Shown here: one piece after another, positions 8,248 to 54,623 of the stretch
Layout of the letters: each line of letters opens with the position of its first letter
Numbering within the stretch: position 1 is the stretch's first letter
From: Candidatus Omnitrophota bacterium
GTDB lineage: Bacteria > Omnitrophota > Gorgyraeia > Zapsychrales > JAHFFX01
Direction: 5' to 3'
Length of the DNA: 64,000 bases
Assembly (NCBI GenBank): GCA_023247705.1
Contig: JAHFFY010000001.1
Span: forward strand, 33,358 to 97,357
The notes under the pieces: generated by a model
What the model saw: only the letters and a program-made list of their open reading frames with translations
Databases searched by the model: none
What the model was told of the DNA's origin: nothing
Program-made: the position numbers and the translations under genes

Positions 8248-10359
8248 ATGTGGTTTTTAGCTTACTCCAAGAGATCATGTTTTATGTCAGGAACACCGCA
8301 AAAAATTCGAATCGGATCACGTTCCAGCGCTTTGGCCATCAAACAGGTTGAAGAGGTTTTGTATCTTTTCAAAAAAAGTGGGATCTATTTTGAATATGAA
8401 CTCAAGATATTTCAAACCCGCGGGGATCACGACAAACAGACTCCTCTCACCGCTAGCTCAATTGATAATTTTTTTACCGATACTCTTGATGAAGCCCTCC
8501 GGACCGAACAAATCGATCTTGCGGTGCACAGTGCGAAAGATGTTCCTCAGCGATTGCCGCCAGGATTGGATTTATTTGCATTAACCCCGTGTTTGGACGA
8601 AACAGACAGTCTCGTGGCCTCCCGAAAATTATCTGAACTTAAATCCGGATCGAAAATCGGTGCAAGCAGTTTAACTCGTCAGGAAGCGATCAAAGCCATT
8701 AATCCTCATGTTAAAGTGTTTGATATCCGTGGGACGATCGAAGAGCGGATGGATTTGGTCAAAAAAGAAACATTAGATGGAGTGATTATCGCGACGTGTG
8801 CTTTAAAACGTTTAAATTTAGAGCAAGACATCACGGAAATCATGCCCTGGGAGACAACCGCATTACAGGGACAATTAGCGATCGTTGGCCGATCAAGGGA
8901 TTTAAAATTAAAATTCATGTGTCATCCGCTGGATGTCCGTTCAAAGTATGGACGGGTTGTTTTGGTTGGTGCTGGTCCGGGAGACCCGGAACTCATCACC
9001 TTGAAGGCGATCAAGGCGTTAGAACAAGCCCAGTGTGTTTTTTATGATTACCTTGCTCATCCTGATTTATTGAAATATGCGCCCAACGCCGAAAAGATTT
9101 ATGTCGGTAAAAGAAAAGCCGAGCATTCGCTTTCCCAGGCGCAACTGTCCAGAATGTTACGCGAAAAAGCCGCGCAAGGCCAACAGGTCGTTCGATTGAA
9201 GGGCGGAGATCCTTTGATTTTTGGGCGTGGGGCGGATGAGATTCAATATTTAAGATCTTATCATATCCAGGTGTCGGTTGTGCCCGGCATCAGTTCAGCT
9301 ACAGGCATTCCATCGCTGTTAGGCATTCCTCTGACGGCGCGCGGCATTTCATCTTCAGTTGCTTTTATCAGCGGACATGAAGAGGATGAAAAAATTCTAC
9401 CTAACAGAATATTACAGATTCCAAAAGTTCAAACGATCGTATTTTTTATGGGATTGACAAAGTTAAAGATCGTTGTCGAGTCTTTACAGCAATCCGGATG
9501 GTCCAATGAAACACCGGTAATTATTATTTCTAGAGGAACAAGGCAAGATCAACAGATTGTTACCGGAACGATCAGCAATATTGAAGCGCGGTTATTATCC
9601 CATAAAATTGAGCCTCCGGCCCTGATTATAGTCGGAGAAACGATTGAATTTTATAATCAAAATAATTCTGCAGCCCCCAATATTCTGTATTTGGGGACCA
9701 AGCCGGAGAAATACGCGTTTTTGGGTCAGATCATTCATTTCCCTATGATGGATATTATTCCCACTGAATTCTCTCAACCACAGCGCGATCAGATTTTTTC
9801 CGATTTTAGTCGAAGCGAAGTCATTATTTTTACCAGCAGGTTTGCTGTGCAATATTTCGTCGCGTTGCTACAAGACCAAAAGGATCTTTTATCGAAGCTC
9901 AAGACCAAGATCATCTGTGCCGTGATCGGCCGGGAGACCGAGAAGGTTTTAAATGAGTTCGGTATCAAAGCCCGCTGTGTTCCTTCGATCGAAACCAGCC
10001 AGGGATTGTTTGAAGCTTTAAACCAACAGTTTGAACTCAAAGGAAAGAAAATTATCCTGCCCCGTTCCTCATTGCCAAACCCGTATCTCAAACAAAAATT
10101 AACCGAAAACGGAGCACAGGTGATCGAGGTTACAATTTATAAAAACAAAAAGCGAACAACAATTTTCCCGAACCTCCAAGACCAATCCTTTGCCCAAGTG
10201 AGCCATATTCTTGTTTCGAGTCCGTCAACGGTTAATTATTTTCTCGAGATTTATCATCAGATCCCTCAAAATTGGCAAATCATCAGTAAAGGACCAGTGA
10301 CGACTCAGGCGTTATCAAACGTCGGTTATGCGACAACAAAAATCATTGAATTAATGTAG
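8248..10359 (+). CDS. Tri-domain fusion: porphobilinogen deaminase-like (HemC domains 1-2) + uroporphyrinogen-III C-methyltransferase (CobA/SUMT) + uroporphyrinogen-III synthase (HemD)
   Basis: HemC-like IRIGSRSSALA, AVHSAKDVP, QGQLAIVGR. SUMT signature VVLVGAGPGDPELITLKA plus GGDPLIFGRG. The C-terminal ~230 aa is HemD-like. Start is ambiguous between 8248 and 8284. Confidence 0.7.
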   Translation: MWFLAYSKRSCFMSGTPQKIRIGSRSSALAIKQVEEVLYLFKKSGIYFEYELKIFQTRGDHDKQTPLTASSIDNFFTDTLDEALRTEQIDLAVHSAKDVPQRLPPGLDLFALTPCLDETDSLVASRKLSELKSGSKIGASSLTRQEAIKAINPHVKVFDIRGTIEERMDLVKKETLDGVIIATCALKRLNLEQDITEIMPWETTALQGQLAIVGRSRDLKLKFMCHPLDVRSKYGRVVLVGAGPGDPELITLKAIKALEQAQCVFYDYLAHPDLLKYAPNAEKIYVGKRKAEHSLSQAQLSRMLREKAAQGQQVVRLKGGDPLIFGRGADEIQYLRSYHIQVSVVPGISSATGIPSLLGIPLTARGISSSVAFISGHEEDEKILPNRILQIPKVQTIVFFMGLTKLKIVVESLQQSGWSNETPVIIISRGTRQDQQIVTGTISNIEARLLSHKIEPPALIIVGETIEFYNQNNSAAPNILYLGTKPEKYAFLGQIIHFPMMDIIPTEFSQPQRDQIFSDFSRSEVIIFTSRFAVQYFVALLQDQKDLLSKLKTKIICAVIGRETEKVLNEFGIKARCVPSIETSQGLFEALNQQFELKGKKIILPRSSLPNPYLKQKLTENGAQVIEVTIYKNKKRTTIFPNLQDQSFAQVSHILVSSPSTVNYFLEIYHQIPQNWQIISKGPVTTQALSNVGYATTKIIELM

Positions 10360-10402: not shown

Positions 10403-11359
10403 ATGAATCGTTCTCGACGGCTACGCAAAAATGAAATTATTCGCAATCTGGTCAGGGAAACACGATTAGCGAAAGATCAGCTCATTCAGCCTTTTTTTGT
10501 CTTGGAAGGAAGAAACAGGAAGATTGAGATATCTTCCATGCCCGGGATTTATCGCTATTCAGGAGATTTACTTCTGAAGGCAATTCAGGATTATCAAAAA
10601 TCAGGAGGGAAGGCGGGAATTTTGTTCGGAATTCCCGGGAAGAAAGATTTGCAAGGAAGTCAGGCCTATGCGGACAACGGGATCATTCAAAAAACTCTAA
10701 AACTGATCAAGAAAGAATTTCCAGATTTTTTTGTTATCACTGATGTTTGTTTGTGTGGATATACTACCCACGGACATTGTGGACTTGTGGAAGGCCGACA
10801 GATCCTCAACGATAAAACGCTGCTGCTTTTGACAAAAGTAGCGGTGTCCCATGCGCAAGCTGGAAGTGATATGGTTGCTCCATCGGATATGATGGATTTT
10901 CGGGTTCAGCATATTCGTGCGGGCTTGGATAAGAATGGATTTGAGGATACTCCAATCCTGTCTTATGCCGTCAAGTATTCGTCCGCTTTTTACGGCCCGT
11001 TTCGCGATGCGGTTGATTCAACCCCGCAGTTCGCAGACCGCAAAACTTATCAAATGGATTGTGCTAATCAGCGTGAAGCGATCAAAGAAGCCCGGCAGGA
11101 TGTCATGGAAGGTGCTGATCTGATCATGGTGAAGCCGGCGTTACCGTATTTAGATATCATAACCTTGCTTCGGCATCAGCTCACCGTGCCTATTGTCGGA
11201 TTTAGCGTTAGCGGAGAATACGCGATGATTAAAGCGGCGGCTCGAGCCAAGTGGATTGATGAAAAATCTTCAGTTCTGGAAAGTTTAATTGCGATTAAAC
11301 GCGCAGGTGCGGACATAATTATCTCCTATTACGCGCATGAAGTTTTAACATGGATATAA
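10403..11359 (+). CDS. hemB: Porphobilinogen synthase (delta-aminolevulinate dehydratase)
   Basis: Zn-binding DVCLCGYTTHGHCG; active-site Lys region (MVKPA); full-length ALAD similarity. Confidence 0.9.
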   Translation: MNRSRRLRKNEIIRNLVRETRLAKDQLIQPFFVLEGRNRKIEISSMPGIYRYSGDLLLKAIQDYQKSGGKAGILFGIPGKKDLQGSQAYADNGIIQKTLKLIKKEFPDFFVITDVCLCGYTTHGHCGLVEGRQILNDKTLLLLTKVAVSHAQAGSDMVAPSDMMDFRVQHIRAGLDKNGFEDTPILSYAVKYSSAFYGPFRDAVDSTPQFADRKTYQMDCANQREAIKEARQDVMEGADLIMVKPALPYLDIITLLRHQLTVPIVGFSVSGEYAMIKAAARAKWIDEKSSVLESLIAIKRAGADIIISYYAHEVLTWI

Positions 11360-12633
11360 AAAGATCGAAGCAGATATTTAAGGAAGCCCAGACCGTCATG
11401 GTAGGGGGTGTTAATAGCCCGGTGCGATCTTTTCGGTTGGTGGGAGGACATCCGTTGGTGATGAAATCGGGTCAAGGAAGCCAGTTATTCGATGAAGACC
11501 AAAATGCTTATACGGACTATTGTTTATCCTGGGGCTCTTTGATTCTAGGGCACAGCCACAAAGATATTGTCCAAATCCTGAAAAAAGCGATTGTCCATGG
11601 GACAAGTTTTGGAACCACGACCTCGGCTGAACTTGAGATCGCTAAATTTATTACCAAAAATATTCCATCAATTGAACGCGTTCGGTTTGTTAATTCCGGA
11701 ACTGAAGCAACGATGAGTGCAATACGCGTGGCCAGGGGGTTCACAAAAAAAGAAAAGATCATCAAATTTGATGGCTGCTATCATGGCCATTTTGATGATT
11801 TGTTGACAAAAGCGGGATCCGGCGTTGCCAATTTATCGGAATCCTCGAGTCTTGGGATTACGAAGAACCATATCCAAAATACCTTCAGCCTGCCATTCAA
11901 TGATAGCCAAACGTTTGAAAAAATTGTGACCCAGCATAAAGCTGAAATTGCCTGCGTGATCATTGAACCTGTTGCTGGCAACATGGGGGTTATTCCAGCT
12001 AAAGAGGAGTTTTTGAAAACAATCCGGCAAATCACTCAAAAAAATAATATTGTTCTGATCTTCGATGAAATCATGACGGGTTTCCGCAGTCATATCGGTG
12101 GTGTTCAATCAGAGTTAGGTGTCATTCCTGATATGACCTGTTTGGGAAAAATCATCGGAGGCGGATTCCCCGTTGGCGCGTATGGTGGTAAAAGGGAAAT
12201 CATGTCCTACCTTGCGCCGTTAGGTGGCGTGTATCAGGCTGGAACGTTTGCCGGAAATCCTGTCGTAATGCAAGTTGGTCTGGCGACTTTAAAAAATTTA
12301 ACGCCATCTTTTTACAAAAAACTGAATGCCTTTGCGGATCAATTTGCCCAGAAGTTGAATGCTTTTTTTCAAAAGAATCAAATTGAAGCGTTTTTATCGC
12401 ACTATAAATCCATGATGAGTTTACGATTCAGAAAAAAGCCGGTTGCGAATTACGAAGACGCTGTCGCAGCCTCTTCACAAGCAAAGTATTCTAAAGTTTT
12501 CCACCAGTTATTACGCCATCAAATCTATTGGCCTCCAGCTGATTTGGAAGCATTTTTTTTGTCCGGATCTCATACGCAAGCAGATTTAAATGTGTTATAT
12601 CGATGGATATGTGATTATTTCAGTAAAAATTAA
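11350..12633 (+). CDS. hemL: Glutamate-1-semialdehyde 2,1-aminomutase
   Basis: GGVNSPVRSF signature; class III PLP aminotransferase fold; overlaps the hemB stop. Confidence 0.9.
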   Translation: MDIKRSKQIFKEAQTVMVGGVNSPVRSFRLVGGHPLVMKSGQGSQLFDEDQNAYTDYCLSWGSLILGHSHKDIVQILKKAIVHGTSFGTTTSAELEIAKFITKNIPSIERVRFVNSGTEATMSAIRVARGFTKKEKIIKFDGCYHGHFDDLLTKAGSGVANLSESSSLGITKNHIQNTFSLPFNDSQTFEKIVTQHKAEIACVIIEPVAGNMGVIPAKEEFLKTIRQITQKNNIVLIFDEIMTGFRSHIGGVQSELGVIPDMTCLGKIIGGGFPVGAYGGKREIMSYLAPLGGVYQAGTFAGNPVVMQVGLATLKNLTPSFYKKLNAFADQFAQKLNAFFQKNQIEAFLSHYKSMMSLRFRKKPVANYEDAVAASSQAKYSKVFHQLLRHQIYWPPADLEAFFLSGSHTQADLNVLYRWICDYFSKN

Positions 12634-13650: not shown

Positions 13651-15042
13651 TTAGATATATCGGCGTAAATGAGAGGGAAGGATTTTTAACGAATGTCGGT
13701 ATTTGCTGACTGTTCTACGGGCAAGAACTAATCCTTTTTCCTGAAAGAGACGCTGAATATCTTGGTCTGAGAGGGGTGTATTTTTATCTTCGTTGTCCAC
13801 CATATCTTTAATTTCCTCGCGAATACTCCTGCTCGAAATATTATTCTGTTGTTCATCAACCAGGCCGTTTGAGAAAAAGAACTTGATTGGGACCACCCCT
13901 TGAGGAGTTTCAATATATTTATTTTGAATGGCTCGGCATATGGTCGATTCATTCCGGCCGATCGCCAGTGCGATCTCTTTCATGTTCATGGGCGGAATGG
14001 CACTGTTTGTTCCTTCGAAATACTCTTTTTGTTTGGTGAGGATAAACTGCGCGATTTCCCGAATAGTTGAACCGCGCTGTTCTATACTTTTGATGAAATG
14101 GAGGGCATCTCGCAGTTTTCCCTTAAGAAATTCCTTTTCTTCATTGGTTAAATTGTTTTTACTCATAATATTTTTATAGAATGAATTAATACGCAAATGG
14201 GGGATCTGCCGCATATTGATATTAATCTGATAGCCATGAACAGGATCATTTTTGATGATTACATCTGGAACAATCTCAATGTTGCTGGATAATGGACGAT
14301 AATTTCTGGCTGGTTTTGGTTCCAATAATGCGATAATTTTGATTGATTCTTTGAGTTTGTCAATGGATATCCCTAATGCGCGAGCGATTGGCGTGTATTT
14401 TTTTCGACCTAAATCTTCTAAATATAAGTCTACGATTTTATAGACAGCGGTTTCCTTTGCGTAATTTTTGTTTCGTAACTGACAAAGTAGGCATTCTTTG
14501 AGTGTAAAAGAGGCTATGCCGATCGGTTCAAAGTTTTGAATGATTCTCCTGACTTCTTCAACTGGTTCTGTGGAGGGCAGGGCAAGGACTTGTGCTATTT
14601 CATCACAAGATATTTTGAGATAGCCATCTTCATCAAGGTTTCCAATAATCAATTCGGCAATTTCGAGTTTGAGCGAATCAGATATTTCAATGCGAGCTTG
14701 TTGCAGGAGTATATCTTCCAGAGGAAGCTCTCTGGTGATTGGTTTTTCTTCAAATTCATCTTCATCCGTTGGATGGTTGTCGTATTTATTTATTTTGTTC
14801 AATTCCGTATGCTGAAGGATTTTTTGATTCATTTGGGATTCGAGGTGTGCAACAGAAGCCTCAAGGTTTTCTTCCGCCAGCTCAAGAAGCGGGTTATTTT
14901 CAAGTTCCTGCTCAATTGTTAGGCGTAGTTCAGTCAAGGGTAGCATAAGAATCGAGATAGATTGCTGCATGAGGGGAGACAGAACTGGTTTTAGGGTCTG
15001 TAAAGGTGTTAATTTGAATTTCATATGCAGAAAGTATACCAT
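13651..15042 (-). CDS. rpoN: RNA polymerase sigma-54 factor
   Basis: C-terminal RpoN box (ARRTVSKYR); HTH region; acidic region II; N-terminal Gln/Leu-rich activator-interacting region. Confidence 0.9.
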   Translation of the reverse strand: MVYFLHMKFKLTPLQTLKPVLSPLMQQSISILMLPLTELRLTIEQELENNPLLELAEENLEASVAHLESQMNQKILQHTELNKINKYDNHPTDEDEFEEKPITRELPLEDILLQQARIEISDSLKLEIAELIIGNLDEDGYLKISCDEIAQVLALPSTEPVEEVRRIIQNFEPIGIASFTLKECLLCQLRNKNYAKETAVYKIVDLYLEDLGRKKYTPIARALGISIDKLKESIKIIALLEPKPARNYRPLSSNIEIVPDVIIKNDPVHGYQININMRQIPHLRINSFYKNIMSKNNLTNEEKEFLKGKLRDALHFIKSIEQRGSTIREIAQFILTKQKEYFEGTNSAIPPMNMKEIALAIGRNESTICRAIQNKYIETPQGVVPIKFFFSNGLVDEQQNNISSRSIREEIKDMVDNEDKNTPLSDQDIQRLFQEKGLVLARRTVSKYRHSLKILPSHLRRYI

Positions 15043-15165
15043 ATGATTTTAAAATAAGGCAAATTCTAATTTTTTTTATCATATTTCCATTTTATCAATT
15101 TTAGCGGTGATGATAATAATTTTAAACATTTGTTTAACTCTTTATTTTTCTTGGCTTTTCTGTGC

Positions 15166-15188
15166 TTGTCCTACCTTGTCTAGGACAA
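15166..15188. promoter_or_regulatory. Inverted repeat TTGTCCTA-N7-TAGGACAA (candidate enhancer / bEBP binding site)
   Basis: Perfect 8-bp arms, about 140 bp upstream of the sigma-54 -24 element at 15324. Confidence 0.35.
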
Positions 15189-15323
15189 ATACGTCCATTC
15201 TTCTAAACACATACCTAAAGTGTGTCTGTAAGTGTTTTTATCAAGCGCAAAAATTTATTTCATAACTTATTGAAGATAATTAGGTTATAGATTTAAAAAA
15301 TATTCTCAACATCGATACAAAGA

Positions 15324-15339
15324 TGGCACACTAGTTGCT
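15324..15339 (+). promoter_or_regulatory. Sigma-54 (-24/-12) promoter, TGGCAC-N5-TTGCT, heading the EPS operon
   Basis: Exact consensus match: TGGCAC at 15324-15329, 5-nt spacer, TTGCT at 15335-15339. About 85 nt upstream of the first gene (15425). Confidence 0.7.
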
Positions 15340-15424
15340 TAATGCCATTGTAAATCGATGCAATAATGATTTGCGATATTCAATATATATTATAAAATAC
15401 ACAAAGTAAAAAGGAGGAGTTGCA

Positions 15425-15610
15425 GTGAAGAAGAGAATGACTATTACGGAAGTCGCCGGCATGATTGGCATCAGTCCGAAAACAATAGCGCGATGGGAAA
15501 AAGTTGGAAAAATTAAAAAACCCAAACGAGATTGGCGTGGATGGCGAGTGTACGATGAAAATGATGTCACCCAGATTCGGGAATTTCATGAGACTGTGTT
15601 TGAGGTATAA
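15425..15610 (+). CDS. Small MerR/excisionase-type HTH DNA-binding protein
   Basis: TITEVAGMIGISPKTIARWEKVGKI helix-turn-helix; GTG start 6 nt after an AAAGGAGGAG RBS; first gene behind the sigma-54 promoter. Confidence 0.6.
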   Translation: MKKRMTITEVAGMIGISPKTIARWEKVGKIKKPKRDWRGWRVYDENDVTQIREFHETVFEV

Positions 15611-15648
15611 AAAGTCTTAAATTTAATCAATTTAAGGAGTCGCAATAT

Positions 15649-16488
15649 ATGAAACACAATATAAAAACATTTAATATTCTGATTTTAGCTTTAATGGCCA
15701 TTCTATTGGACTTTAACGTTGTTCACGCCGAAAATTATGCTGGCGGGAATCCAGAGATCAAAGCTAAAGAACAAACTCAAAAATTAACAGAAACCAAGAA
15801 TACTGATACTACTAAAGAAGCTCAAGAAGGGATGGTAGTCCAGGAACCTAGCGCAGAAGATATTCTTCAGCAATCACAATCTTTATCATCGGAATCTGAT
15901 CCGAGTCGATATACGTTAGGAGTCAATGACGTGATCGAAATATCTGTATTGCGCCATCCAGAAGTCACAGGGCAATATGTGATTAATAGTGAAGGCAAGA
16001 TCCAATACGAATTTGTCGGAGATATTAAAATTCAAGGAAAGACAAAGGATGAGGTCAAGGCGATCATAACCGAAAGTTTATCAAAATATATCGTATCTCC
16101 GGATGTAACAGTTAAAATCAGCGGATATAACAGTAAAGTCGTCTATGTCATTGGAGAAGTTGGAAATCCGGGAAAGATTTATATGCGAGGAGATACGATT
16201 ACCATTCATGAAGCTCTCCTGCAAGCGGGCTTACCGCTTTTAACCGCTTCTACGCGAAAAAGCAGGCTCATAACACCTTCAAAAGAAGGAAAGGCTTCTC
16301 AAAAATTCGTTAATGTGGAAGCTTTGCTGTATGAAGGTGACTTAAGAGAAAATTTAGTGATGAAACCTGGAGATACTCTTTATATCCCAGCAACTGTTAT
16401 GGCGAAGGCTATGAGAGTTATTTCTCCGGTCGCTCAACCAGTCGGAGCAGCCGCTACTACTGGAAGAACCGTTACGACAGGTTTTTAA
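15649..16488 (+). CDS. Polysaccharide export protein (Wza/OPX-like periplasmic Poly_export + SLBB domains)
   Basis: Signal peptide; Poly_export-like motif (YTLGVNDVIEISVLRHPE...); SLBB-like repeat (VYVIGEVGNPGKIYM). Confidence 0.8.
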   Translation: MKHNIKTFNILILALMAILLDFNVVHAENYAGGNPEIKAKEQTQKLTETKNTDTTKEAQEGMVVQEPSAEDILQQSQSLSSESDPSRYTLGVNDVIEISVLRHPEVTGQYVINSEGKIQYEFVGDIKIQGKTKDEVKAIITESLSKYIVSPDVTVKISGYNSKVVYVIGEVGNPGKIYMRGDTITIHEALLQAGLPLLTASTRKSRLITPSKEGKASQKFVNVEALLYEGDLRENLVMKPGDTLYIPATVMAKAMRVISPVAQPVGAAATTGRTVTTGF

Positions 16489-16536
16489 TTTTATCATAAT
16501 AACCGTTATTCTCGGATAGGCAAGAAAGGAAATAGC

Positions 16537-17841
16537 ATGGATGATTTAAATACTAGTTCGCTGTCAGTCATGAGTTATCTAAAAATATTTTTTAGAAGAA
16601 AATGGCTGTTTATTATTCCCGTGTATGCCGGTTTGATTTTCGGTGTTTGTGCAGGGATAGTTCTTCCGAAAAAATATTTATCATCCACAATTATTTTGGT
16701 AGAGGAAGGGAAATCGGATAATCCTTTGTTTAATAATTTAGCTGTTTCAACGACCGTCACGCAACGTATGACAGCGATTCAAGAGTCCATGCTCGGATGG
16801 AATAGTCTGGTCAAACTCGTTAAACGGTTAAATATGGATTCCTTGGTGAAAACGCCGCAAGATTTGGAAAAGCTGATTTTAGGCATAAGAAAGGACATAA
16901 TTATCAAATTACGTGATAAGAATATTATTGATCTATCTTACATTGGTACGGAGCCGGAACAGACTCAAGCCGTCGTTAAGAATATCACAGAAATTTTTAT
17001 CGAAAGAAACGTTGAAGTCCAAAGCAAGGAAACCTCTGATGCCATCACTTTTATAGAAGGGCAGTTGCATCTTTATCAGGGGAAGATTAAATCAGCAGAA
17101 ATTGCGCAACTTCAAGATCAATTGAATACATTATTATTAGATTCAACCGAACAACACCCGCATGTCAAGCAACTCAGAGAACAGATTGAAAACAAAAAAC
17201 AAGAATTAGCCAAAGAGAACCTGGTATATACGGAAAATGTTTCTCTGGATACAAGCACTACAAATCCTATTATTGATGAAATCAAAAAAGCTTTAGGTAA
17301 TATCGAAACAGCGAGCAATGATGGTCCCGATGCCAACGGGATCAACGATCCAGGAACCAAGGATATTTATAAAGTTATGTTAATTGATAAACTTGACAAT
17401 GTGATCGCCCGTGATGTTAATGTTAACACGAACATTTATAATATGCTTTTACAGCGACTGGAAACTGCGAAAATTACCCAGCGCCTGCAGTCGTCAAAAG
17501 AAGGTACGAAATATACAATTTTAGATCCGCCGCGGGTTCCGCTAGATCCAGTACAACCTAATAAAGTTTTAGTGATCATGATGGGAACCTTGCTTGGCGC
17601 GATCATCGGAGGGGCATTGGTTTTTGCGATCGAGTTCCTTGATAAATCGTTTCTTGATGTTGAGGAAGCCAAAGAATATCTCGGAACACCTCTTTTAGGA
17701 GCGATTTCAAAGATTGTTACAGTGGAAAGTTTGCAGCAAGACAAAGTTAAACAAGGATGGATTGCCGGATTAACCGCAGTGGCCGGAGTCATCATCGTCA
17801 TTGTCACAGTGCTGGTATCGAAATTTATTTCAAACAGTTAA
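16537..17841 (+). CDS. Polysaccharide chain-length determinant protein (Wzz/PCP family, PEP-CTERM-locus type)
   Basis: N-terminal and C-terminal TM helices flanking a long coiled-coil periplasmic region; Wzz-like N-terminal motif. Confidence 0.75.
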   Translation: MDDLNTSSLSVMSYLKIFFRRKWLFIIPVYAGLIFGVCAGIVLPKKYLSSTIILVEEGKSDNPLFNNLAVSTTVTQRMTAIQESMLGWNSLVKLVKRLNMDSLVKTPQDLEKLILGIRKDIIIKLRDKNIIDLSYIGTEPEQTQAVVKNITEIFIERNVEVQSKETSDAITFIEGQLHLYQGKIKSAEIAQLQDQLNTLLLDSTEQHPHVKQLREQIENKKQELAKENLVYTENVSLDTSTTNPIIDEIKKALGNIETASNDGPDANGINDPGTKDIYKVMLIDKLDNVIARDVNVNTNIYNMLLQRLETAKITQRLQSSKEGTKYTILDPPRVPLDPVQPNKVLVIMMGTLLGAIIGGALVFAIEFLDKSFLDVEEAKEYLGTPLLGAISKIVTVESLQQDKVKQGWIAGLTAVAGVIIVIVTVLVSKFISNS

Positions 17842-17865
17842 CTATTCAAGAAAGAAGACGTCATT

Positions 17866-18750
17866 ATGTATCTTCAATTTTACGGATTTCAGGAACCACC
17901 ATTTAATATTACCCCAAATTCGCGTTTCTTTTTTTCCAGCACAAAGCACACGGAAGCCTTGAGTACTCTTGTTTATGCGATTTCGGAACGCAAAGGGTTC
18001 GTTGTGATAACCGGGGATATCGGTTCCGGCAAAACAACCGTATGCCGGGCGCTGGTCAACAAGCTGGATTCAAGAACCCAAATTGCCTTGATTACAAACA
18101 CGCTGATGAGCGGGAGAGATTTGATTACGACCATTCTAGAAGATTTAGAAGTCGATTTTACCTCCGGATCCAAGGCCAAACTTCTTTCTCAATTGAATTC
18201 ATATCTGATCGAACAATTGCGAAGCAACAATAACGTCGTTTTAATCATTGATGAAGCCCAGAATTTAACACCTTCCGTGCTAGAAGAGGTCCGCTTGTTA
18301 TCCAATTTAGAAACTGAAAATGAGAAATTGATACAAATTATTTTTCTTGGGCAACCTGAGCTTAAGAAAAAATTAGCGTTAAGTAAATTAGAGCAGCTCA
18401 GACAGCGTATTGCGGTCTTTTATCACCTTTATCCATTAACACAAAAAGAAACTCATGAATATGTGCTCCATCGGTTGAAAGTCGCCAGTGGAAGTGATCG
18501 GAATTATTTGACTCCGGAGGCCTTGGAACTGGTCTATCAGTTTTCCAAAGGGATTCCGCGATTAGTTAATCAAATTTGTGATAGCGCGTTTTTAACCGGG
18601 TATATCAACGAATCCAAAATAATCGATGCGACGATTTTGAAAGAAGTCATTGCTGAATCTCCGATGACGTTAATCGGAGATGGCACGAAGAAGGATATCA
18701 ATGTCTCGTCTTTAGATGACGATCTGCCCAAGGCATGGCTACGCGGATAA
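17866..18750 (+). CDS. ExeA/GspA-like AAA ATPase (PEP-CTERM locus secretion-ATPase family)
   Basis: Walker A GDIGSGKTT; Walker B IIDEAQNL; ExeA-like architecture. Confidence 0.7.
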   Translation: MYLQFYGFQEPPFNITPNSRFFFSSTKHTEALSTLVYAISERKGFVVITGDIGSGKTTVCRALVNKLDSRTQIALITNTLMSGRDLITTILEDLEVDFTSGSKAKLLSQLNSYLIEQLRSNNNVVLIIDEAQNLTPSVLEEVRLLSNLETENEKLIQIIFLGQPELKKKLALSKLEQLRQRIAVFYHLYPLTQKETHEYVLHRLKVASGSDRNYLTPEALELVYQFSKGIPRLVNQICDSAFLTGYINESKIIDATILKEVIAESPMTLIGDGTKKDINVSSLDDDLPKAWLRG

Positions 18751-18805
18751 TCAACGTTTCTAGAAATGGAAAAGTATCTCAGTGATCTAGGGAGGATTTT
18801 AAGTT

Positions 18806-19522
18806 ATGAGCAAAGTCTTGAAAGCACAAAAAGAATTAGGCGAGGGAAGAAAGATCAAATTCAGTCTGTTGTCGTTGCCCCACGCTCACGATGATTTAAA
18901 TCATGGCGCTTCTTCAATGGCCACAGAAAACGAAGGGCTAGAATCTCCCGAGTCGACCCAATCCCAGCCATCTGCTAAAAACCATTCCAAAGAACGCAAT
19001 CATCTGGAATTTTCTGGAGAAAAGAAAAGATCCAATTTTAAGCATATGATGCCGGTTATTTTTTTGGTTGCAGTTTTTGGATTCTCCTTGATGATTTTTA
19101 GTTTGAAGATCCTGGAGGAATTAAAATCGTTAGAAACGGCATCCGCAGATATTCATAAGAATTTTCTTTCGCAAAATGCCAAATTGATCGAGTTGGAGCA
19201 TTCTTGGGAGGAGTTCAGAATGAAATCACTGAATGATATCACTCAGATCATCAATGACCAAGAGGATTTTATGCAAACCGCAAAAACATCACAAACCGCT
19301 TTATTTAAAGTCTCCAACAATGTGGCAGGTTTGAACTCTACGATCATGAACATGGAGAATAATTTACAGAAGAATCAAGAACGGCTTAATGAACTTTATT
19401 CAAGTCATTTAACCTTACAGACGATGGTGAGTGACATGAATGAGAGTGTACAGCAGATCCAAATGAAATTGGATACTAATCCTACTGAGGGAGTAAGAGG
19501 AAAAGAAAGTTCTGTCCAATAG
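18806..19522 (+). CDS. Hypothetical bitopic membrane protein with periplasmic coiled-coil (possible ExeB-like partner)
   Basis: Single TM (MMPVIFLVAVFGFSLMIFSL) after a ~75-aa charged N-terminus; coiled-coil C-terminus; sits directly after the ExeA-like ATPase. Confidence 0.35.
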   Translation: MSKVLKAQKELGEGRKIKFSLLSLPHAHDDLNHGASSMATENEGLESPESTQSQPSAKNHSKERNHLEFSGEKKRSNFKHMMPVIFLVAVFGFSLMIFSLKILEELKSLETASADIHKNFLSQNAKLIELEHSWEEFRMKSLNDITQIINDQEDFMQTAKTSQTALFKVSNNVAGLNSTIMNMENNLQKNQERLNELYSSHLTLQTMVSDMNESVQQIQMKLDTNPTEGVRGKESSVQ

Positions 19523-19553
19523 ACAGTCATCTTAAGAAAGGGCAAAGACGAAC

Positions 19554-20339
19554 ATGGGAAAAATCACGAGTGCATTGAAAAAAGCCGCGGATGAACGGTT
19601 CCAAAGAATAGATAAGATCAATCGGATCAAAGAGCAAGATCGTTTAATTATTAAAAAAATGGGGTCTTCCAGCATTGATCCGCGATTAATCACTTATTTC
19701 GATCCCAAGGCACTGATTACGGAACAATATAAAATCTTGAGGACCAATTTTCTTTCCATCAATAAAGGCCGCCCCCCGAAAATCGTCGTGGTGACAAGTG
19801 CCTTGCATTCAGAAGGGAAGACAATTACTGCACTCAATTTAGCCATTGCTTTGGCGCAAACGACCAATAAACCAAGAATTCTGTTGATTGACGCCGATTT
19901 GCGCCGTGGCCGTATCGCTAAGTATCTCGGAGTTGACCAGAATTCAGGCTTAAGCGATCTTTTGAGCGCTAGAGCCTCGTTGGATCAAGTTTTATTCAGT
20001 ATTGATCTTGAGAATTTAAGTTTTATTGCGCCGGGATCTCCTCCGGAAAATCCCTCAGAGCTTCTTTCATCTGAAAATATGAAAACTTTACTGAATGAAG
20101 TCAAACACCAATTTGATTTTGTTTTGATTGATACTCCCCCCATTATTGCGGTGACTGATTCGGGAGTTTTAGGTTCTATGGTTGACGGTGTCCTTATGGT
20201 TGTGCAAGCTGGCCGAACCCAGCGCGGGATCATCAATCGGGCCACTGAACTTCTCGAGCAAGCTCACGCGAAATTGATAGGCCATGTGCTAACAAATATC
20301 GAATATCATCTTCCAGAATATATCTATCGGTATTTGTAA
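19554..20339 (+). CDS. Tyrosine-protein kinase (BY-kinase) cytoplasmic ATPase domain (CpsD/Wzc C-terminal-like)
   Basis: ParA/MinD-type Walker A (TSALHSEGKTITALNLA), A' (LLIDADLRRG) and B (VLIDTPP); C-terminal Tyr cluster EYHLPEYIYRY. Confidence 0.8.
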   Translation: MGKITSALKKAADERFQRIDKINRIKEQDRLIIKKMGSSSIDPRLITYFDPKALITEQYKILRTNFLSINKGRPPKIVVVTSALHSEGKTITALNLAIALAQTTNKPRILLIDADLRRGRIAKYLGVDQNSGLSDLLSARASLDQVLFSIDLENLSFIAPGSPPENPSELLSSENMKTLLNEVKHQFDFVLIDTPPIIAVTDSGVLGSMVDGVLMVVQAGRTQRGIINRATELLEQAHAKLIGHVLTNIEYHLPEYIYRYL

Positions 20340-47419: not shown

Positions 47420-48564
47420 AAACCATATTCTGGATTTTATTCATATTAATCGTGTACTGTTATTTTGGATATCCGATCCTGCTTAGCGTTTTCGCCAGCT
47501 GCCGTACGCGAAAAGTTATAAAACAAGAAATTTTTCCAACCATTTCCGTTGTGATCTCGGTTGCGAATGAGGAATCGGTCATTGAGAAGAAGATGAGTAA
47601 CCTTTTATCCATGGATTATCCTTCCGACAAACTGGAAATTTTAATCGGATCGGATGGTTCAACGGATAAAACGAATGATATCGTCCGAAATTTTAACGAC
47701 AAACGCATTCAGCTAATTGTTAGTTCACAGCGAAAAGGGAAGATGGCGACCGTTAATCAACTGGTTCAACTGGCCCAAAACGAAATGATCGTTTTTACGG
47801 ATGCCCGTCAGATGTTTGACCGAGTTGCTTTTAAGGAATTGGTTTTTAACTTTGCCGATCCACACGTAGGATGTGTCAGCGGAGAGTTGATTTTTACGAA
47901 AAAGGAAGGCTCGACCGCTCAGGGAATTAATCTATACTGGGAATATGAAAAATTTATGCGTCAAAAAGAAAGCCAACTTCATTCCATGATCGGGGCAACA
48001 GGAGCGATCTATGCGATCCGTCGAAAATTGTTTGTTCCTGCGCCGACCAATATGATTTTGGATGATGTTTTTACGCCGCTTAAAATTGTTCAACAAGGGT
48101 ACCGTGCGATCTTTGAGGGACAGGCGATCGCTTACGATGAAGCGGCAAACAACCCAAAAGAAGAATATGCGCGGAAAGCCAGAACCTTAGCCGGCAATTA
48201 TCAGATATTTTTTGTTTTGCCGGACATCTTTAACCCCTTGAAAAGTCCTTTGGCGATTCAGATGTTCTCGCATAAACTGCTAAGGGTTTTGATCCCATTT
48301 TTTTTGATTTTTTTGCTCATTATCAATTTTAAATTAAGAAACAATCAATTTTTTATTTTTATTTTATGGGGCCAGATCCTTTTCTACGGGATGGCGATAT
48401 TGGGAAGCTTGGCAAAAAAACCAAAATATGCTATTCTTAAGCCTATTTCTAAAATGTGTTATATTCCCTATGTCTTTTGTCTCCTTAATTTCTCTGCTTT
48501 AGCTGGATTTTGGCGCTTTGTTCGGTCTTCGCAGACGGTCACTTGGGAGAAGGCAAGGACTTAG
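47416..48564 (+). CDS. Family 2 glycosyltransferase with N- and C-terminal TM segments (processive-type topology)
   Basis: ISVVISVANEE, DGSTD, TDAR motifs; C-terminal multiple TM helices. Confidence 0.75.
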   Translation: MKTIFWILFILIVYCYFGYPILLSVFASCRTRKVIKQEIFPTISVVISVANEESVIEKKMSNLLSMDYPSDKLEILIGSDGSTDKTNDIVRNFNDKRIQLIVSSQRKGKMATVNQLVQLAQNEMIVFTDARQMFDRVAFKELVFNFADPHVGCVSGELIFTKKEGSTAQGINLYWEYEKFMRQKESQLHSMIGATGAIYAIRRKLFVPAPTNMILDDVFTPLKIVQQGYRAIFEGQAIAYDEAANNPKEEYARKARTLAGNYQIFFVLPDIFNPLKSPLAIQMFSHKLLRVLIPFFLIFLLIINFKLRNNQFFIFILWGQILFYGMAILGSLAKKPKYAILKPISKMCYIPYVFCLLNFSALAGFWRFVRSSQTVTWEKART

Positions 48565-48586
48565 CGAAACGATTCAAAATAACGAT

Positions 48587-49405
48587 ATGCGTGAGTTAAT
48601 TACAAAATATAAAAACCAATTTTTAATTGCTTTAATCTTATTATTTACCTATACGCCCACATTAATTTGGATGTGGGATCGATGGTTTACTCGGGATTCT
48701 TATTATTCGCATGGGATTCTTATTCCATTCATTACAGCTTATTTAATCTGGCAGAATAGATCACAGTTAATGCAGATGAAACCAGAAAAATCCGAGATAG
48801 GGATGAAATTGATCATTCTCGGACTGTTTGTTCATTTAATTAGTTCTCTTTTCCGGGTTTATTTTTCCTCTGGTTTTTCTCTGGTGATTGTTATTATCGG
48901 ACTCATTCTTTATTTTTATGGAGAAAAAATTTTAAAAGATATCTCGTTCCCGATCGTTTTTTTATTTTTTATGGTTCCCTTACCGCTGGTTGTTATTATC
49001 AATATTAGTTTTAAGATGAAATTATTCGCGGCTCAAATTGCGGCTGTTGTGTTAAATAGCATGAATATTCTGGCGGTCAGGGAGGGGAGCCTGATTCGCA
49101 TGGCTAATGCCCAAGTTGTCGTCGATGATGTCTGCAGCGGGTTGCGATCTTTGATGTCGTTGACGGCCTTAGGAAGCATTTTTGCGTATTGGATGAAAGG
49201 GCCGATGTGGAAGCGGCTTTTACTGTTTTTGTCTACAGTCCCCATCGCGGTGATCACAAATGTGTGCCGAATTATATTGCTTGCTTCGGTCAGCGAGATT
49301 TGGGGGTCGAAATACGCGACGGGGTTTATTCATGATCTTTCTGGCTTTATTGTTTTTGCGTTAGCTTTTATTTTATTGTATTCAGTTTCTAGGTTAATGG
49401 AATAA
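48587..49405 (+). CDS. Exosortase (EpsH/XrtA family)
   Basis: Eight-TM architecture. Conserved exosortase motifs: DDVCSGLRSL (catalytic Cys region), NVCRIILL (Asn/Arg) and the HD-like C-terminal motif. The track ORF starts at 48518, overlapping the upstream gene. Confidence 0.85.
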   Translation: MRELITKYKNQFLIALILLFTYTPTLIWMWDRWFTRDSYYSHGILIPFITAYLIWQNRSQLMQMKPEKSEIGMKLIILGLFVHLISSLFRVYFSSGFSLVIVIIGLILYFYGEKILKDISFPIVFLFFMVPLPLVVIINISFKMKLFAAQIAAVVLNSMNILAVREGSLIRMANAQVVVDDVCSGLRSLMSLTALGSIFAYWMKGPMWKRLLLFLSTVPIAVITNVCRIILLASVSEIWGSKYATGFIHDLSGFIVFALAFILLYSVSRLME

Positions 49406-49407
49406 AT

Positions 49408-50043
49408 ATGATACGTGATAAAAATTTTGGCATCATTGTTTGTCTTCTATTAATTTCCGGAATAATTTCCTGGGTTTTATATTTCAAGGAATATACTCAA
49501 GTGGATACAGTGGATATTACCAAATTTCCGAAATCGATATCGGGCTGGACAGCTGAAGATCTTCCAATCAGCAAGGAAGAGTATGATATTTTAGAGACTC
49601 ACAATGTCGTAGCAAGGCGTTATAAAAATATTCAGAATGAACCGATATATCTCTTAATTGTTTATTCTCAGCATAATCGCAAAATTTCTCATCCTCCAGA
49701 AGTTTGCTATACAGGGGGAGGCGTTACTATTTTAGAAAATGTTAAAGATAAGATCCCTGTTTCTGCAGGAAAGAATATAATCAGTGCGAACCGATTACTT
49801 TTAGAGCTAAGGGGGACCAAGCAGTTTTCGTATTATTGGTTTAAAGTAGGCGATTCGTTTACCGCGAACTATTGGAATCAACAAGCCCTCATTGCCGTAA
49901 AAACATTGTTTGGGCAGCCTCATAGTAGCGCATTAATTCGAATTTCATCCGACATCAGCAAGAATGATGAAAAAGGGGCTATTGATCGAATTAAGTACTT
50001 TACAAATTTGATCCTAAATGATTTAAATCGATATCTGCCGTAA
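49408..50043 (+). CDS. EpsI-family exosortase-associated protein
   Basis: N-terminal TM; size, position (immediately 3' of exosortase) and ISGWTAEDLPISKEEYDIL...VVARRY region match the EpsI family. Confidence 0.7.
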   Translation: MIRDKNFGIIVCLLLISGIISWVLYFKEYTQVDTVDITKFPKSISGWTAEDLPISKEEYDILETHNVVARRYKNIQNEPIYLLIVYSQHNRKISHPPEVCYTGGGVTILENVKDKIPVSAGKNIISANRLLLELRGTKQFSYYWFKVGDSFTANYWNQQALIAVKTLFGQPHSSALIRISSDISKNDEKGAIDRIKYFTNLILNDLNRYLP

Positions 50044-50080: not shown

Positions 50081-50099
50081 TTCTGTTTGTTAAACAGAA
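50081..50099. promoter_or_regulatory. Inverted repeat TTCTGTTT-gtt-AAACAGAA (candidate enhancer site)
   Basis: Perfect 8-bp arms with a 3-bp spacer, about 200 bp upstream of the sigma-54 promoter at 50298. Confidence 0.3.
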
Positions 50100-50297
50100 A
50101 ATTTTTTTTCGATCCGAAAAAGGGATGAAAATTAAAAACAACATGCGTTTAATAAATTCAACATCTTTTGATTCTAATTTTATAATTTCCCAATAAATTG
50201 TTGGAAATTGTTAAGTTTTTATAGTTTCTCTTATTGTAAGGTTATATTTAGCAATAATTTATAATAGAGGTGTTTCTTAAATGATTTTTAAAAAACT

Positions 50298-50313
50298 TGG
50301 CACATTATTTGCT
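50298..50313 (+). promoter_or_regulatory. Sigma-54 (-24/-12) promoter, TGGCAC-N5-TTGCT
   Basis: Exact consensus at 50298-50303 / 50309-50313; about 45 nt upstream of the ATG at 50358; the same 16-mer architecture as the promoter at 15324. Confidence 0.7.
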
Positions 50314-51292: not shown

Positions 51293-51321
51293 TTGACATC
51301 TAGGTGGTGTCTTTATATAGA
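51293..51321 (+). promoter_or_regulatory. Sigma-70 promoter (TTGACA-N17-TATAGA, or N15-TATATA) upstream of the major PEP-CTERM protein gene
   Basis: TTGACA at 51293-51298; -10 at 51316-51321; strong GGGGGAG RBS before the ATG at 51378. Confidence 0.5.
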
Positions 51322-51377: not shown

Positions 51378-52289
51378 ATGAAGAAGTTATTTGTAGTTTT
51401 AGCCCTAGTTGTTGGAGTGTTCTCAATTAACTCCCAAGTTTGGGCACAACCGTTTACACCATCGATGGCGGGAGATACTTATGATACTACGCCAGATGCG
51501 ATCCCGACTCCTAAGGATAATAATGATAACTTAGGACCTTATTCGGGTACGCCTTATACGTTAAGTTCAACAGAACCTGGTTCACATGGACCTAACCCGG
51601 CGGACATCAACGATGCCATCAATTTGCTTTTGAGCACTGCTTACGTAAGAAATCAAGATGTTGATTTCCTTCGTTTTCTTGGCCCAGATGCAACCTGGAA
51701 AGACTTGAGCACAATAGATAACGATGGAACATATGTGCTCGTTTCTCTTACCGCAGCTAACGAAAATACCTTAAGAGTGTATGATGTGGCTTCACCTGGG
51801 ATTAAATTGAATGTTCTTGGCCCAGATCGGGGTTTTGGATATACTGGGGATGGAAGCCTGGCTAAACCTTTTGAGGCTGGTTTTTCTCCATTAACTCCAG
51901 GAACGAACTTTGGTTGGTCACTAAAAAGTGAAAGAAAGGCACCCCAGACTCCTCCATTTTTTGTAAGAGAATGGGATTCCAATGTCGCTTTTAACGTTGA
52001 TGGTTTGGATCATATGTTGACATACCATTTAGCCGATTTAAAAGGTAAGAAAGTTTACATCAAAGTTGGCACGGTTGTTCAGCAGTATACGTTTAACGAT
52101 CCATATCTTTTAGCCTGGGAAGACAAAGGATTAGGCACAGATGGTAAACTAGGCGATGAAGATTATGATGATCTTATTTATCTAGTTGATCGCGTTCAAC
52201 CTTTCAACCCGGTTCCAGAACCGATGAGCATGATGTTGCTCGGTAGTGGGTTGGTTGGTTTAGTTGGTTTAAGAAAGAAGATTAGTTAA
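51378..52289 (+). CDS. PEP-CTERM domain secreted protein (exosortase substrate)
   Basis: Sec signal peptide (AQP cleavage); C-terminal VPEPMSMMLLGSGLVGLVGLRKKIS (PEP motif + TM helix + basic tail). Confidence 0.85.
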   Translation: MKKLFVVLALVVGVFSINSQVWAQPFTPSMAGDTYDTTPDAIPTPKDNNDNLGPYSGTPYTLSSTEPGSHGPNPADINDAINLLLSTAYVRNQDVDFLRFLGPDATWKDLSTIDNDGTYVLVSLTAANENTLRVYDVASPGIKLNVLGPDRGFGYTGDGSLAKPFEAGFSPLTPGTNFGWSLKSERKAPQTPPFFVREWDSNVAFNVDGLDHMLTYHLADLKGKKVYIKVGTVVQQYTFNDPYLLAWEDKGLGTDGKLGDEDYDDLIYLVDRVQPFNPVPEPMSMMLLGSGLVGLVGLRKKIS

Positions 52290-52381: not shown

Positions 52382-52660
52382 ATGTCAAAAGACACGAAAA
52401 AACTTTTATCTTTTGCCCTTATCTCGTTATTTCTCCCGTTCTTTGTCGGGTGTCAAGGTGCTGCCAATCAACTAAGTGAATTCACCTTGGGTGGGGGTGG
52501 TACAAACAATGCTGTTAGTTCTGGTTTTTTCCCCCTTAGTGTTGTAGATGGAGGTACTGCGATAGCAGCCATCCACAATCCAGAACCTACAACAGTGTTA
52601 TTGTTAGGGAGTGGCTTCATAACAATGGGTTTATATAGGAATCGAAGAAAGAATAGATAA
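52382..52660 (+). CDS. Mini lipoprotein with C-terminal PEP-CTERM domain (dual-anchor exosortase substrate)
   Basis: Lipobox FFVGC after a signal peptide; C-terminal HNPEPTTVLLLGSGFITMGLYRNRRKNR; AGGAGAGGAGG RBS. Confidence 0.75.
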   Translation: MSKDTKKLLSFALISLFLPFFVGCQGAANQLSEFTLGGGGTNNAVSSGFFPLSVVDGGTAIAAIHNPEPTTVLLLGSGFITMGLYRNRRKNR

Positions 52661-52686: not shown

Positions 52687-52731
52687 AAAAAAATACGGTA
52701 GGATGAGTGATCTTCCTACCGTATTTTTTTT
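52687..52731 (+). terminator. Rho-independent (bidirectional-type) terminator after the PEP-CTERM genes
   Basis: A-tract at 52687-52692; 11-bp stem ATACGGTAGGA (52693-52703) / TCCTACCGTAT (52714-52724); 10-nt loop; T8 at 52725-52732. Confidence 0.8.
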
Positions 52732-52770
52732 ATTCGTGACCGTACTTAAGGCAAAAATTTGGCTTTATGT

Positions 52771-52798
52771 TTGACACGAATCGTATCTATGTTAAAAT
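52771..52798 (+). promoter_or_regulatory. Sigma-70 promoter (TTGACA-N16-TAAAAT) for the regulatory operon
   Basis: TTGACA at 52771-52776; TAAAAT at 52793-52798. Confidence 0.45.
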
Positions 52799-54614: not shown

Positions 54615-54623
54615 ATCCTACGC

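Follow-up and report, generated by a model that had tools for sequence, protein, structure and literature searches.

Three described systems come close to the one discussed here. The first is the PrsK-PrsR-PrsT system of Proteobacteria, in which a 17-nt sequence (motif 1) precedes the sigma-54 motif of PEP-CTERM genes by about 63 nt (Haft et al. 2006, PMC1569441). Motif 1 co-occurs with PrsK, PrsR and PrsT and, among the species analysed, is found only in Proteobacteria (PMC1569441). In Aquincola, pepA is RpoN1-dependent and the exopolysaccharide (EPS) biosynthesis genes are apparently RpoN-independent (PMC9850573). The second are the sigma-54 promoters of the NtrC/NifA type such as glnAp2 and nifH, the latter with a TGT-N10-ACA upstream activating sequence and integration host factor (IHF). 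The third is the Streptomyces protein BldC, which binds variable numbers of direct repeats head-to-tail, bends the DNA and can repress by coating it (PMC5859096). The locus compared with them here lies in a 64-kb stretch of DNA, hereafter the window, from a Candidatus Omnitrophota bacterium (contig JAHFFY010000001.1, positions 33,358 to 97,357 of the forward strand). It is an exosortase/PEP-CTERM EPS locus with two exact sigma-54 boxes, P1 and P2, and a two-part element A + B upstream of P1. The link between sigma-54, an enhancer-binding protein (EBP) and PEP-CTERM proteins is already known in Proteobacteria; the wiring in Omnitrophota differs. A literature search on Omnitrophota and sigma-54 found no relevant paper.

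The reading that we favour with some confidence, from comparison of sequences, is that P1 is the sigma-54-driven promoter of the EPS operon, that element B is the enhancer of an EBP and that element A is the site of a small helix-turn-helix (HTH) protein. It is built on sequence features, their conservation, spacing statistics, gene content and protein folds. Genes in the window were called by NCBIfam and Pfam scans of its proteins; motifs were counted on both strands and expectations derived from dinucleotide shuffles. Alignment of HTH orthologues gave 74 Omnitrophota loci from species-representative genomes for the comparison of P1, of which 70 have sufficient upstream DNA and serve as denominator for the box counts (search region: the 450 nt preceding the HTH gene). 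About 15 more distant species, whose HTH protein is 55–65% identical and whose rpoN gene is not adjacent, are referred to as type II and set apart from the type-I loci. P2 was compared in 80 metagenomic loci that surround orthologues of the gene preceded by the second box, and a Logan metagenome contig matches the window.

The P1 box, TGGCACactagTTGCT at 15324..15339 (+ strand), is an exact -24/-12 consensus (TGGCAC-ACTAG-TTGCT), as the preliminary description had read it. It is intergenic, 101 nt from the GTG start of the HTH gene, and shares with the palindrome described below the 382-nt spacer between the open reading frames (ORFs) 13651-15042 (- strand) and 15425-15610 (+ strand). The predicted transcription start is near 15350, with a 5' untranslated region of about 75 nt. 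The scan for TGGCAC-N5-TTGCW that had been proposed along with this promoter was run on the 64-kb window and returned two exact copies (0.05 expected), at 15324 and 50298, both within the intergenic share of about 5% of the window and each facing a + strand gene. When up to two mismatches are allowed there are 20 boxes for 23.5 expected, which is background, so that only the exact matches stand out.

The box is conserved in front of the HTH operon. A looser rule (GG-N10-GC plus at least five of seven flanking consensus bases) detects it ahead of the HTH orthologue in about 66 of the 70 species, and the strict rule TGGYAY-N5-TTGCW retrieved it within 450 nt in 50 loci. The strict rule missed the remaining loci because their -12 element is nTGCT; the apparent absence of the promoter from distant relatives, produced by the strict TTGCW expression, was wrong, as they have TGGCAY-N6-TGCT. 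The distance from box to start codon varies from 43 to 356 nt among the relatives, and in an information-content profile only the composite element and the -24/-12 box are fixed in position, the spacers being otherwise devoid of positional information. The box is kept while the distance to the start drifts and the flanks are uninformative, which argues that it is under selection. An exact GG-N10-GC box, conservation in front of orthologues, and an rpoN gene and an EBP gene encoded in the locus together indicate that P1 is very probably a functional sigma-54 promoter of the HTH-wza-chain-length EPS operon, conserved in the phylum; the earlier proposal that it drives a small HTH gene followed by wza/wzc-like genes is thereby upheld. 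A sigma-70 promoter was considered for P1 and rejected: the AT-rich spacer has weak 9/12 matches (nine, 4.0 expected), none of them conserved. No credible Rfam match to a known RNA element was found in the P1 leader or spacer.

The palindrome upstream of P1, TTGTCCtaccTTGTCtagGACAA at 15166..15188 (+ strand), is a perfect inverted repeat with 8-bp arms and a 7-nt loop (TTGTCCTA-CCTTGTC-TAGGACAA), again as first described. It ends 135 nt before the -24 T and its centre is 148 nt from the GG. Its chance odds alone are unremarkable: some perfect inverted repeat with 8-nt arms and a loop of up to 20 nt occurs in 28% of shuffles of the 281-nt AT-rich spacer, and in 1.8% when each arm needs at least three G/C, a criterion set post hoc. 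It is conservation that makes the palindrome significant. A profile built from 33 other species, leaving the window out, finds positions 15160-15210 with 36.9 bits (E = 1e-9). In 34 species the element can be aligned gap-free as TCC-N5-TGTC-N6-TGTC-N3-GACA-N3-ATGTTTAATCTTTTAAACAT. The two 8-nt arms correspond to the pairing of the first TGTCC half-site with the final GGACA. The palindrome is thus one species' version of an array of TGTC/GACA repeats with a 10-bp period, element A, which is one half of the two-part element A + B. Element A scores 28 bits in the window with its position weight matrix (PWM), and an extra degenerate repeat (TCC) lies 10 nt upstream of it, near 15156-15158. The profile search finds exactly one full composite copy per locus. 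The TGTC-N3-GACA core is 147–153 nt upstream of the -24 T in 27 loci, 138–140 nt in five and 131 nt in one, the exceptions being about one or two helical turns shorter. A role of the palindrome as terminator was dismissed, as it has no T-run and a terminator scan of 14900-15700 was empty.

Element A changes position among relatives. In type-II loci, three to five direct GACA-N6 repeats begin 12–27 nt past the -12 box, just before the HTH gene. Among A hits in a scan of 1.12 Mb of DNA, 60 are upstream and about 30 are promoter-proximal or downstream beside the HTH gene. Four type-I loci (L002, L004, L007, L039) have, besides the distal array, an extra direct repeat TGTCC-N5-TGTCC 0–40 nt upstream of the -24 box. 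Only about 4 nt separate its end from the TGG, so that a protein on it would be expected to collide with the sigma-54 holoenzyme. A single extra TGTCC near the -24 box is seen in L019, L023, L024 and L035. In three further loci (L048, L057, L062) the arrays are present and the sigma-54 box was not found. Within the window, a search for other copies of the palindrome with up to three mismatches gave only one poor match, inside an ORF. There being no good second copy, the palindrome is not the common site of the two sigma-54 promoters of the window.

Element B, an AT-rich dyad (aTACGTCCATTCTTCTAAACAca, 15189..15211, + strand), abuts element A and is the candidate enhancer of the EBP. It reads CGTC-N10-AACA at 15192-15209 in the window, where the consensus is ATGTTTAATCTTTTAAACAT, i.e. 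TGTT-N10-AACA, and scores 20.8 bits with a PWM from other species. Its start is about 130–135 nt upstream of the -24 box, with a mode of 135 nt across promoters. In the 1.12-Mb scan, whose B count includes the training loci, 70 of the 90 strong B hits lie 60–260 nt upstream of a sigma-54 box, in regions that make up about 4% of the DNA. The minimal dyad TGTT-N10-AACA, searched 70–230 nt upstream of the sigma-54 box, is present at 27/52 P1 promoters of type I (0.3 expected from shuffles), 10/15 P1 promoters of type II (0.1 expected) and 20/35 P2 promoters (0.2 expected), a total of 57/102 for about 0.6 expected, or an enrichment of about 100-fold.

P2 carries the second exact box (TGGCACattatTTGCT, 50298..50313, + strand) and heads genes for a glycosylphosphotransferase and PEP-CTERM proteins. 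The box is conserved upstream of the orthologous transferase in about 40 of 50 metagenomic loci. For the search at P2 the PWMs of A and B were trained on P1 regions of other species only. An element B was found at 50145..50165 (- strand; CGTT-N10-AACA at 50147-50164 on the + strand), about 151–153 nt upstream of the -24 T, with 21.5 bits as compared to a control maximum of 8.5. No TGTC/GACA was found within 250 nt of P2 in the window, where A scores -9.2 bits. In many relatives P2 is preceded by both elements, arranged in the order opposite to that at P1. The presence of B at both P1 and P2 fits one EBP acting on both promoters.

The EBP encoded by the locus is an NtrC-type sigma-54 activator at 55915-57330 (+ strand) whose domains are REC, AAA+ (with a GSFTGA loop) and HTH_8. 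It is preceded by a soluble histidine kinase (54624-55934, + strand) in which Pfam finds GAF, HisKA and HATPase domains. The order exosortase-EpsI-[P2]-transferase-(PEP-CTERM)-membrane-TPR-kinase-EBP-PocR/GAF is kept in every long relative locus (at least 12), and the presence of a sigma-54 activator in the same locus, pointed out in the preliminary description, is therefore backed by its domains, its kinase and conserved synteny. The recognition helix of the EBP (NRTTLYNKM) and the dyad hardly vary at all. TGT...ACA dyads of such size are usual for Fis-type HTH dimers of the NtrC/NifA family. Element B is a dyad, conserved in position and common to the co-regulated promoters, as expected of an upstream activating sequence, and it is the better candidate for the EBP site because it stays at about 135 nt in both promoter sets and both architectures. 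Binding of B by the EBP of the locus is rather likely on this comparative evidence.

The likeness to NtrC/NifA promoters comprises the -24/-12 box, a TGT...ACA dyad 100–200 nt upstream, helical phasing and an IHF-like core. The dyad here is TGT-N12-ACA, there is one strong dimer site with a weak second one about 80 nt away, and the strong site is flanked by an unrelated repeat array. The weaker dyad, B' (GATGATAATAATTTTAAACAT, TGAT-N10-AACA, 15109..15129, + strand, 17.6 bits), is 215 nt upstream of the -24 T, on the rpoN side of element A; about a dozen loci have a second dyad cluster at 211–228 nt, with weak positional conservation. The IHF-like core (TCAATAAGTTA, 15263..15273, - strand) lies between enhancer and promoter. 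Its pattern TCAAnnnnTTR occurs 15–105 nt upstream of the -24 T in 11/50 P1 loci and 17/38 P2 loci (2.7 expected each), with a cluster at 59–68 nt. No position-conserved B' or IHF site appears in the information-content profile, both being enriched and loosely placed. Two further B-type dyads of lower score were noticed, one of 15.8 bits at 55889-55909, just upstream of the EBP start and inside the 3' end of the kinase gene, and one of 15.0 bits inside an ORF at 43681. At such scores both are probably due to chance; the former could be an autoregulatory site of the EBP.

The activator-kinase module also invites comparison with PrsK-PrsR-PrsT. Both systems belong to exosortase/PEP-CTERM EPS loci, have sigma-54 promoters with a conserved upstream motif and encode a TPR protein, a histidine kinase and an NtrC-type regulator with a Fis-type HTH near the EPS genes. 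The activator scores 401.3 bits with the PrsR model TIGR02915 (cutoff 502.6) and higher, 457 bits, with the AtoC model; the kinase reaches 85 bits with the PrsK model TIGR02916 (cutoff 300), through its kinase core only, and the TPR protein at 53706-54614 reaches 20 bits with the model TIGR02917 of the TPR lipoprotein PrsT (cutoff 312). Because these values are below the equivalog cutoffs, the module is analogous to PrsT-PrsK-PrsR and not a member of it; the description of the activator as PrsR-like holds as an analogy and fails as a family assignment, the soluble kinase not being the transmembrane PrsK. Motif 1 ends with TTTACA and the dyad here with TAAACA, which is a resemblance only. The present system differs in being from Omnitrophota, in a spacer of about 110–115 nt between motif and promoter (about 63 nt in Proteobacteria) and in the genes controlled: sigma-54 drives single PEP-CTERM genes there, and an export/biosynthesis operon plus a priming transferase here. 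The linkage to rpoN, the second repeat element and the small HTH gene are part of the design found here.

The palindrome had been proposed to be the EBP enhancer. Its distance and conservation agree with this proposal; its identity as the activator site does not, as array A moves and is absent at P2 of the window, so that the palindrome is probably not the site of the activator. A model in which the EBP uses the TGTC palindrome as its upstream activating sequence, either by itself or jointly with the AT-rich dyad, and the HTH protein has no part at this site, is nevertheless the best of the alternatives, though an unlikely one. In its favour, the distance of the palindrome is a classical one for enhancers, with helical phasing to the -24 box, many relatives have A arrays 116–126 nt upstream of P2, at a site remote from the HTH gene, and EBPs often use two or three adjacent sites to nucleate their hexamer. 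However, P2 of the window keeps the dyad without any TGTC/GACA near it, and the array is found past the -12 box in the roughly 15 type-II species, against the -24 box in four loci and without a sigma-54 box in three. An EBP would not be expected to loop onto the closed complex from arrays downstream of or abutting the promoter. In addition, three to five direct repeats with a 10-bp period are untypical of Fis-type HTH dimers. The variable position of A, downstream of the promoter in type II, and its absence at P2 of the window are unlike an upstream activating sequence and suggest an operator of a second factor that is able to sit in repressor positions.

The candidate for this second factor is the product of the first gene of the P1 operon (15425..15610, + strand), a BldC-like small MerR-type winged HTH protein of 61 amino acids. 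Its gene has a GTG start and a ribosome-binding site AGGAGG at 15413-15418. Pfam matches it to MerR_1 and MerR, MerR_1 being the sole domain; there is no dimerisation or effector domain. It is 75–89% identical to proteins of Candidatus Omnitrophota, with 30 invariant residues. Its AlphaFold2 model (predicted local distance difference test, pLDDT, 89) has the arrangement H-H-wing-H and Foldseek matches it to the RacA DNA-binding domain, to the N-terminal domains of CarH, NmlR and CueR, and to BldC, the most identical structural match (37–39%), which is also among the sequence-level hits in the PDB. Note that the metagenome-assembled genome nzgw313 carries two copies of the HTH gene, one in the rpoN/type-I context (L051) and one with a wza-like gene downstream (L011); neither the sigma-54 box nor the element was found upstream of the latter. 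According to the window scans, the locus codes for just two DNA-binding regulators, the HTH protein and the EBP.

BldC and the small protein are both stand-alone MerR-type winged HTH proteins of 60–70 residues with no coiled-coil or effector domain, and variable arrays of two to five direct repeats, spaced by about one turn, always lie near the HTH gene, a circumstantial sign that its product may bind head-to-tail as BldC does. The half-site is TGTC/GACA here and AATTnnnnC for BldC, the arrays here often end with an inverted unit, and the context is that of sigma-54 EPS promoters whereas BldC acts on sigma-70 developmental genes. On balance we lean slightly towards the HTH protein as the factor that would bind element A.

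A regulator encoded elsewhere, for example of the OmpR/PhoB type, could bind the TGTC/GACA array instead, the HTH protein then having another target. The pho boxes are TGTCA direct repeats with an 11-bp period, and the window covers only 64 kb of the genome. Direct repeats of about one turn are typical of winged-helix response regulators (see also the discussion in PMC5859096). Against this, the window scans show no OmpR/PhoB-type regulator, the array accompanies the HTH gene in all of the about 74 loci, and the 30 invariant residues of the HTH protein parallel the invariant TGTC half-site; we consider this explanation improbable, more so than the preceding one. That the composite element is mainly an operator of the divergent rpoN gene, with an incidental link to P1, is very improbable: the element does lie in the shared spacer of about 380 nt, 125–190 nt from the rpoN start, and rpoN adjacency is conserved in 39 loci, but its spacing is fixed to the -24 box even in L017, L029 and L036, where 247–294 nt separate the promoter from the HTH start, P2 has counterparts of both sub-elements although rpoN is not in its neighbourhood, and type-I loci lacking an adjacent rpoN (L024, L033) keep it.

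In the favoured reading, with B as enhancer and A as HTH site, P1 would start an operon of the HTH gene, the export and chain-length genes and probably about 35 kb of glycosyltransferase, exosortase and EpsI genes. The adjacent GAF-containing kinase would phosphorylate the EBP, which would bind B and contact the closed complex by looping; the IHF-like site at 15263-15273 may assist the loop. Through the P2 dyad the same EBP would co-induce the priming glycosylphosphotransferase and the PEP-CTERM proteins. The HTH protein on array A would adjoin the bound activator and tune its action, most likely by negative feedback. Negative feedback is the simplest option because the HTH protein is the first product of the activated operon, and the movement of A between positions suits a BldC-like protein as feedback regulator. 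A co-activating or architectural role may also be considered.

Several points weigh against this reading. All assignments of binders rest on comparative genomics in an uncultured phylum, from which we infer both which protein binds which element and the sign of the HTH effect. The inventory of regulators covers the locus only. Element A is also found upstream of P2 in many relatives and so is not simply an autoregulatory site beside the HTH gene; pure autoregulation of this gene through the TGTC array is weakened for the same reason. A could equally be a second class of EBP site, and its tight phasing to the -24 box is what is expected of an enhancer component. The three B-type sites of the window all deviate from TGTT (CGTC, CGTT and TGAT). 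Covariation between the HTH_8 helix of the EBP and the dyad gave no signal and offers no help, being uninformative because helix and dyad are both invariant. BldC is the best NCBIfam match of the HTH protein (NF033787) with 31.9 bits only, for a cutoff of 77. Finally, a single transcript from 15.4 to 50 kb rests solely on the lack of convincing terminators (see below).

The divergent neighbour of the HTH operon is indeed rpoN, as first described. The gene product exceeds the cutoff of TIGR02395 (378 bits, cutoff 277) and the arrangement is kept in the 39 loci mentioned above. The coding sequence is 13651..15024 (- strand) within an ORF that extends to 15042; alignment with relatives indicates that the true start is likely the ATG at 15024 (MKFKLTPLQ...). 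A box TGGTATACTTTCTGCA at 15026..15041 (- strand) ends 1 nt before this ATG; in about 18 of 28 loci a TGGTATACTTYTTGCW box ends 0–3 nt ahead of the rpoN start codon. Two readings apply to it, a consensus sigma-54 -24/-12 box and an extended -10 (TGnTATACT) that sits 6–8 nt from the A of the ATG, and no Shine-Dalgarno sequence is present. These features suggest that the rpoN mRNA is leaderless. They also suggest negative autoregulation by occlusion: sigma-54 bound to this box could act only in this way because its transcription start would fall inside the ORF. That TTGCW is conserved in the stretch from the -10 to the start codon speaks for a dual role. Negative autoregulation of rpoN via an overlapping sigma-54 box has been reported in some rhizobia and pseudomonads. 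The likeness is a consensus-grade GG-N10-GC box overlapping both promoter and start of rpoN. In the present loci it ends at the start codon, doubles as the extended -10 of an apparently leaderless mRNA and is conserved in many species.

A more speculative extension, which we hold only tentatively, is a self-contained sigma-54 cassette for EPS and PEP-CTERM proteins. It would be composed of a self-repressing, divergent and leaderless rpoN, one EBP acting at two dyad promoters and a BldC-like mini-MerR protein that would polymerise on TGTC repeats as a shut-off. These repeats would adjoin the activator site or, in other clades, cover the transcription start. The result would be a two-regulator enhancer with built-in feedback, which to our knowledge has not been described for sigma-54 promoters.

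The genes downstream of P1 belong to an exosortase EPS locus. Those following the HTH gene (15649..20339, + strand) code for a Wza-like exporter, a chain-length determinant, a PEP-CTERM-system ATPase, a hypothetical protein and a tyrosine autokinase (TIGR03027, TIGR03007, TIGR03015, TIGR03018), and the HTH-wza-chain-length order is kept in nearly all 74 loci. Between about 20 and 48 kb they are followed by co-directional genes for glycosyltransferases, a Wzm/Wzt ABC exporter, a methyltransferase, a Wzy-like protein and an aminotransferase, and at 48518-50043 (+ strand) by the exosortase and EpsI genes. Generic exosortase TIGR02602 (174 bits, cutoff 105), EpsI TIGR02914 (91 bits, cutoff 43) and the PEP-CTERM domain TIGR02595 are above their cutoffs, and the XrtA-specific models TIGR03109, TIGR03027, TIGR03007, TIGR03015 and TIGR03018 are all just below theirs, so that the locus is of a related type and not a strict XrtA locus.

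The EPS cluster is about 35 kb long, co-directional and ends at 50043. From P1 to this point all genes have the same direction with short gaps; terminator-like hits are at background level and none falls in a + strand gap. An AT-rich stem with a T-run follows EpsI at 50081-50110. A single sigma-54-gated transcript from 15.4 to 50 kb is plausible from this layout, and internal promoters may exist within it. The broad claim made initially, that the whole exopolysaccharide programme is gated by one sigma-54/EBP circuit, is favoured by co-directionality, short gaps and the shared dyad; full gating is plausible and no stronger than that.

The P2 operon starts with the polyprenyl glycosylphosphotransferase gene (50358/50400-51224, + strand), whose true start may be the ATG at 50400, preceded by an AAGGA Shine-Dalgarno sequence. 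The transferase has a PEP-CTERM-like segment HAPEPTTLALFGSGVLGMVVSAIRK (residues 70–93; Pfam PF07589, E = 8e-5), located near the amino terminus and not at the carboxyl terminus, and its amino-terminal region is conserved in relatives. Two PEP-CTERM proteins are encoded next (51378-52289 and 52382-52660, + strand). Between the transferase and the first of them, at 51293-51321, a TTGACA-N17-TATAGA sequence overlaps a short GC hairpin, GACATCTAGGTGGTGTC with TTTAT behind it. An internal sigma-70 promoter or a weak attenuator may be present here, which bears on how strictly the PEP-CTERM proteins depend on P2. The operon is closed by a strong intrinsic terminator at 52691-52735 (ATACGGTAGGA...TCCTACCGTAT and then T8). 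Some P2 loci similar to type II (L098, L101, L105, L110-L113, L118, L120, L121), and not the window, carry a long conserved leader aaaaGGCTAGTyAAGGwAGCc...TTAACTAGCCAGCC about 60–130 nt past the P2 box, ahead of the transferase gene. It looks like a structured RNA; the leaders of four loci (L098, L105, L110, L113) had no Rfam match at gathering thresholds.

The regulators are encoded in the next operon (52837-58402, + strand), in which a membrane protein and the TPR protein precede the kinase and the EBP is followed by a PocR+GAF protein (57305-58402, + strand). The operon is headed by a sigma-70-type promoter, TTGACA-16-TAAAAT with TG, at 52771-52798, the best such match in the region. As it follows the terminator of the P2 operon and has its own sigma-70-type promoter, the regulators appear not to be sigma-54-dependent.

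The flanks of the window are occupied by housekeeping genes. A 703-residue ORF (8248-10359) appears to fuse three consecutive steps of tetrapyrrole synthesis, with regions of hydroxymethylbilane synthase (HemC), uroporphyrinogen-III C-methyltransferase and uroporphyrinogen-III synthase. Behind it lie the ORFs 10403-11359 and 11350-12633, labelled hemB and hemL in the preliminary description.

That sigma-54 and a PrsR-type activator control PEP-CTERM genes was a prediction of 2006, for which floc-forming Proteobacteria have since given partial confirmation. The system described here points to an analogous circuit with a different wiring that is conserved across an uncultured phylum. It possibly provides an example of a small architectural or repressor protein that gates enhancer-dependent transcription. 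Its DNA sites of 20–25 bp each and its two small proteins, which can be expressed heterologously, would offer a rare handle on the regulation of Omnitrophota and on their surface polymers.

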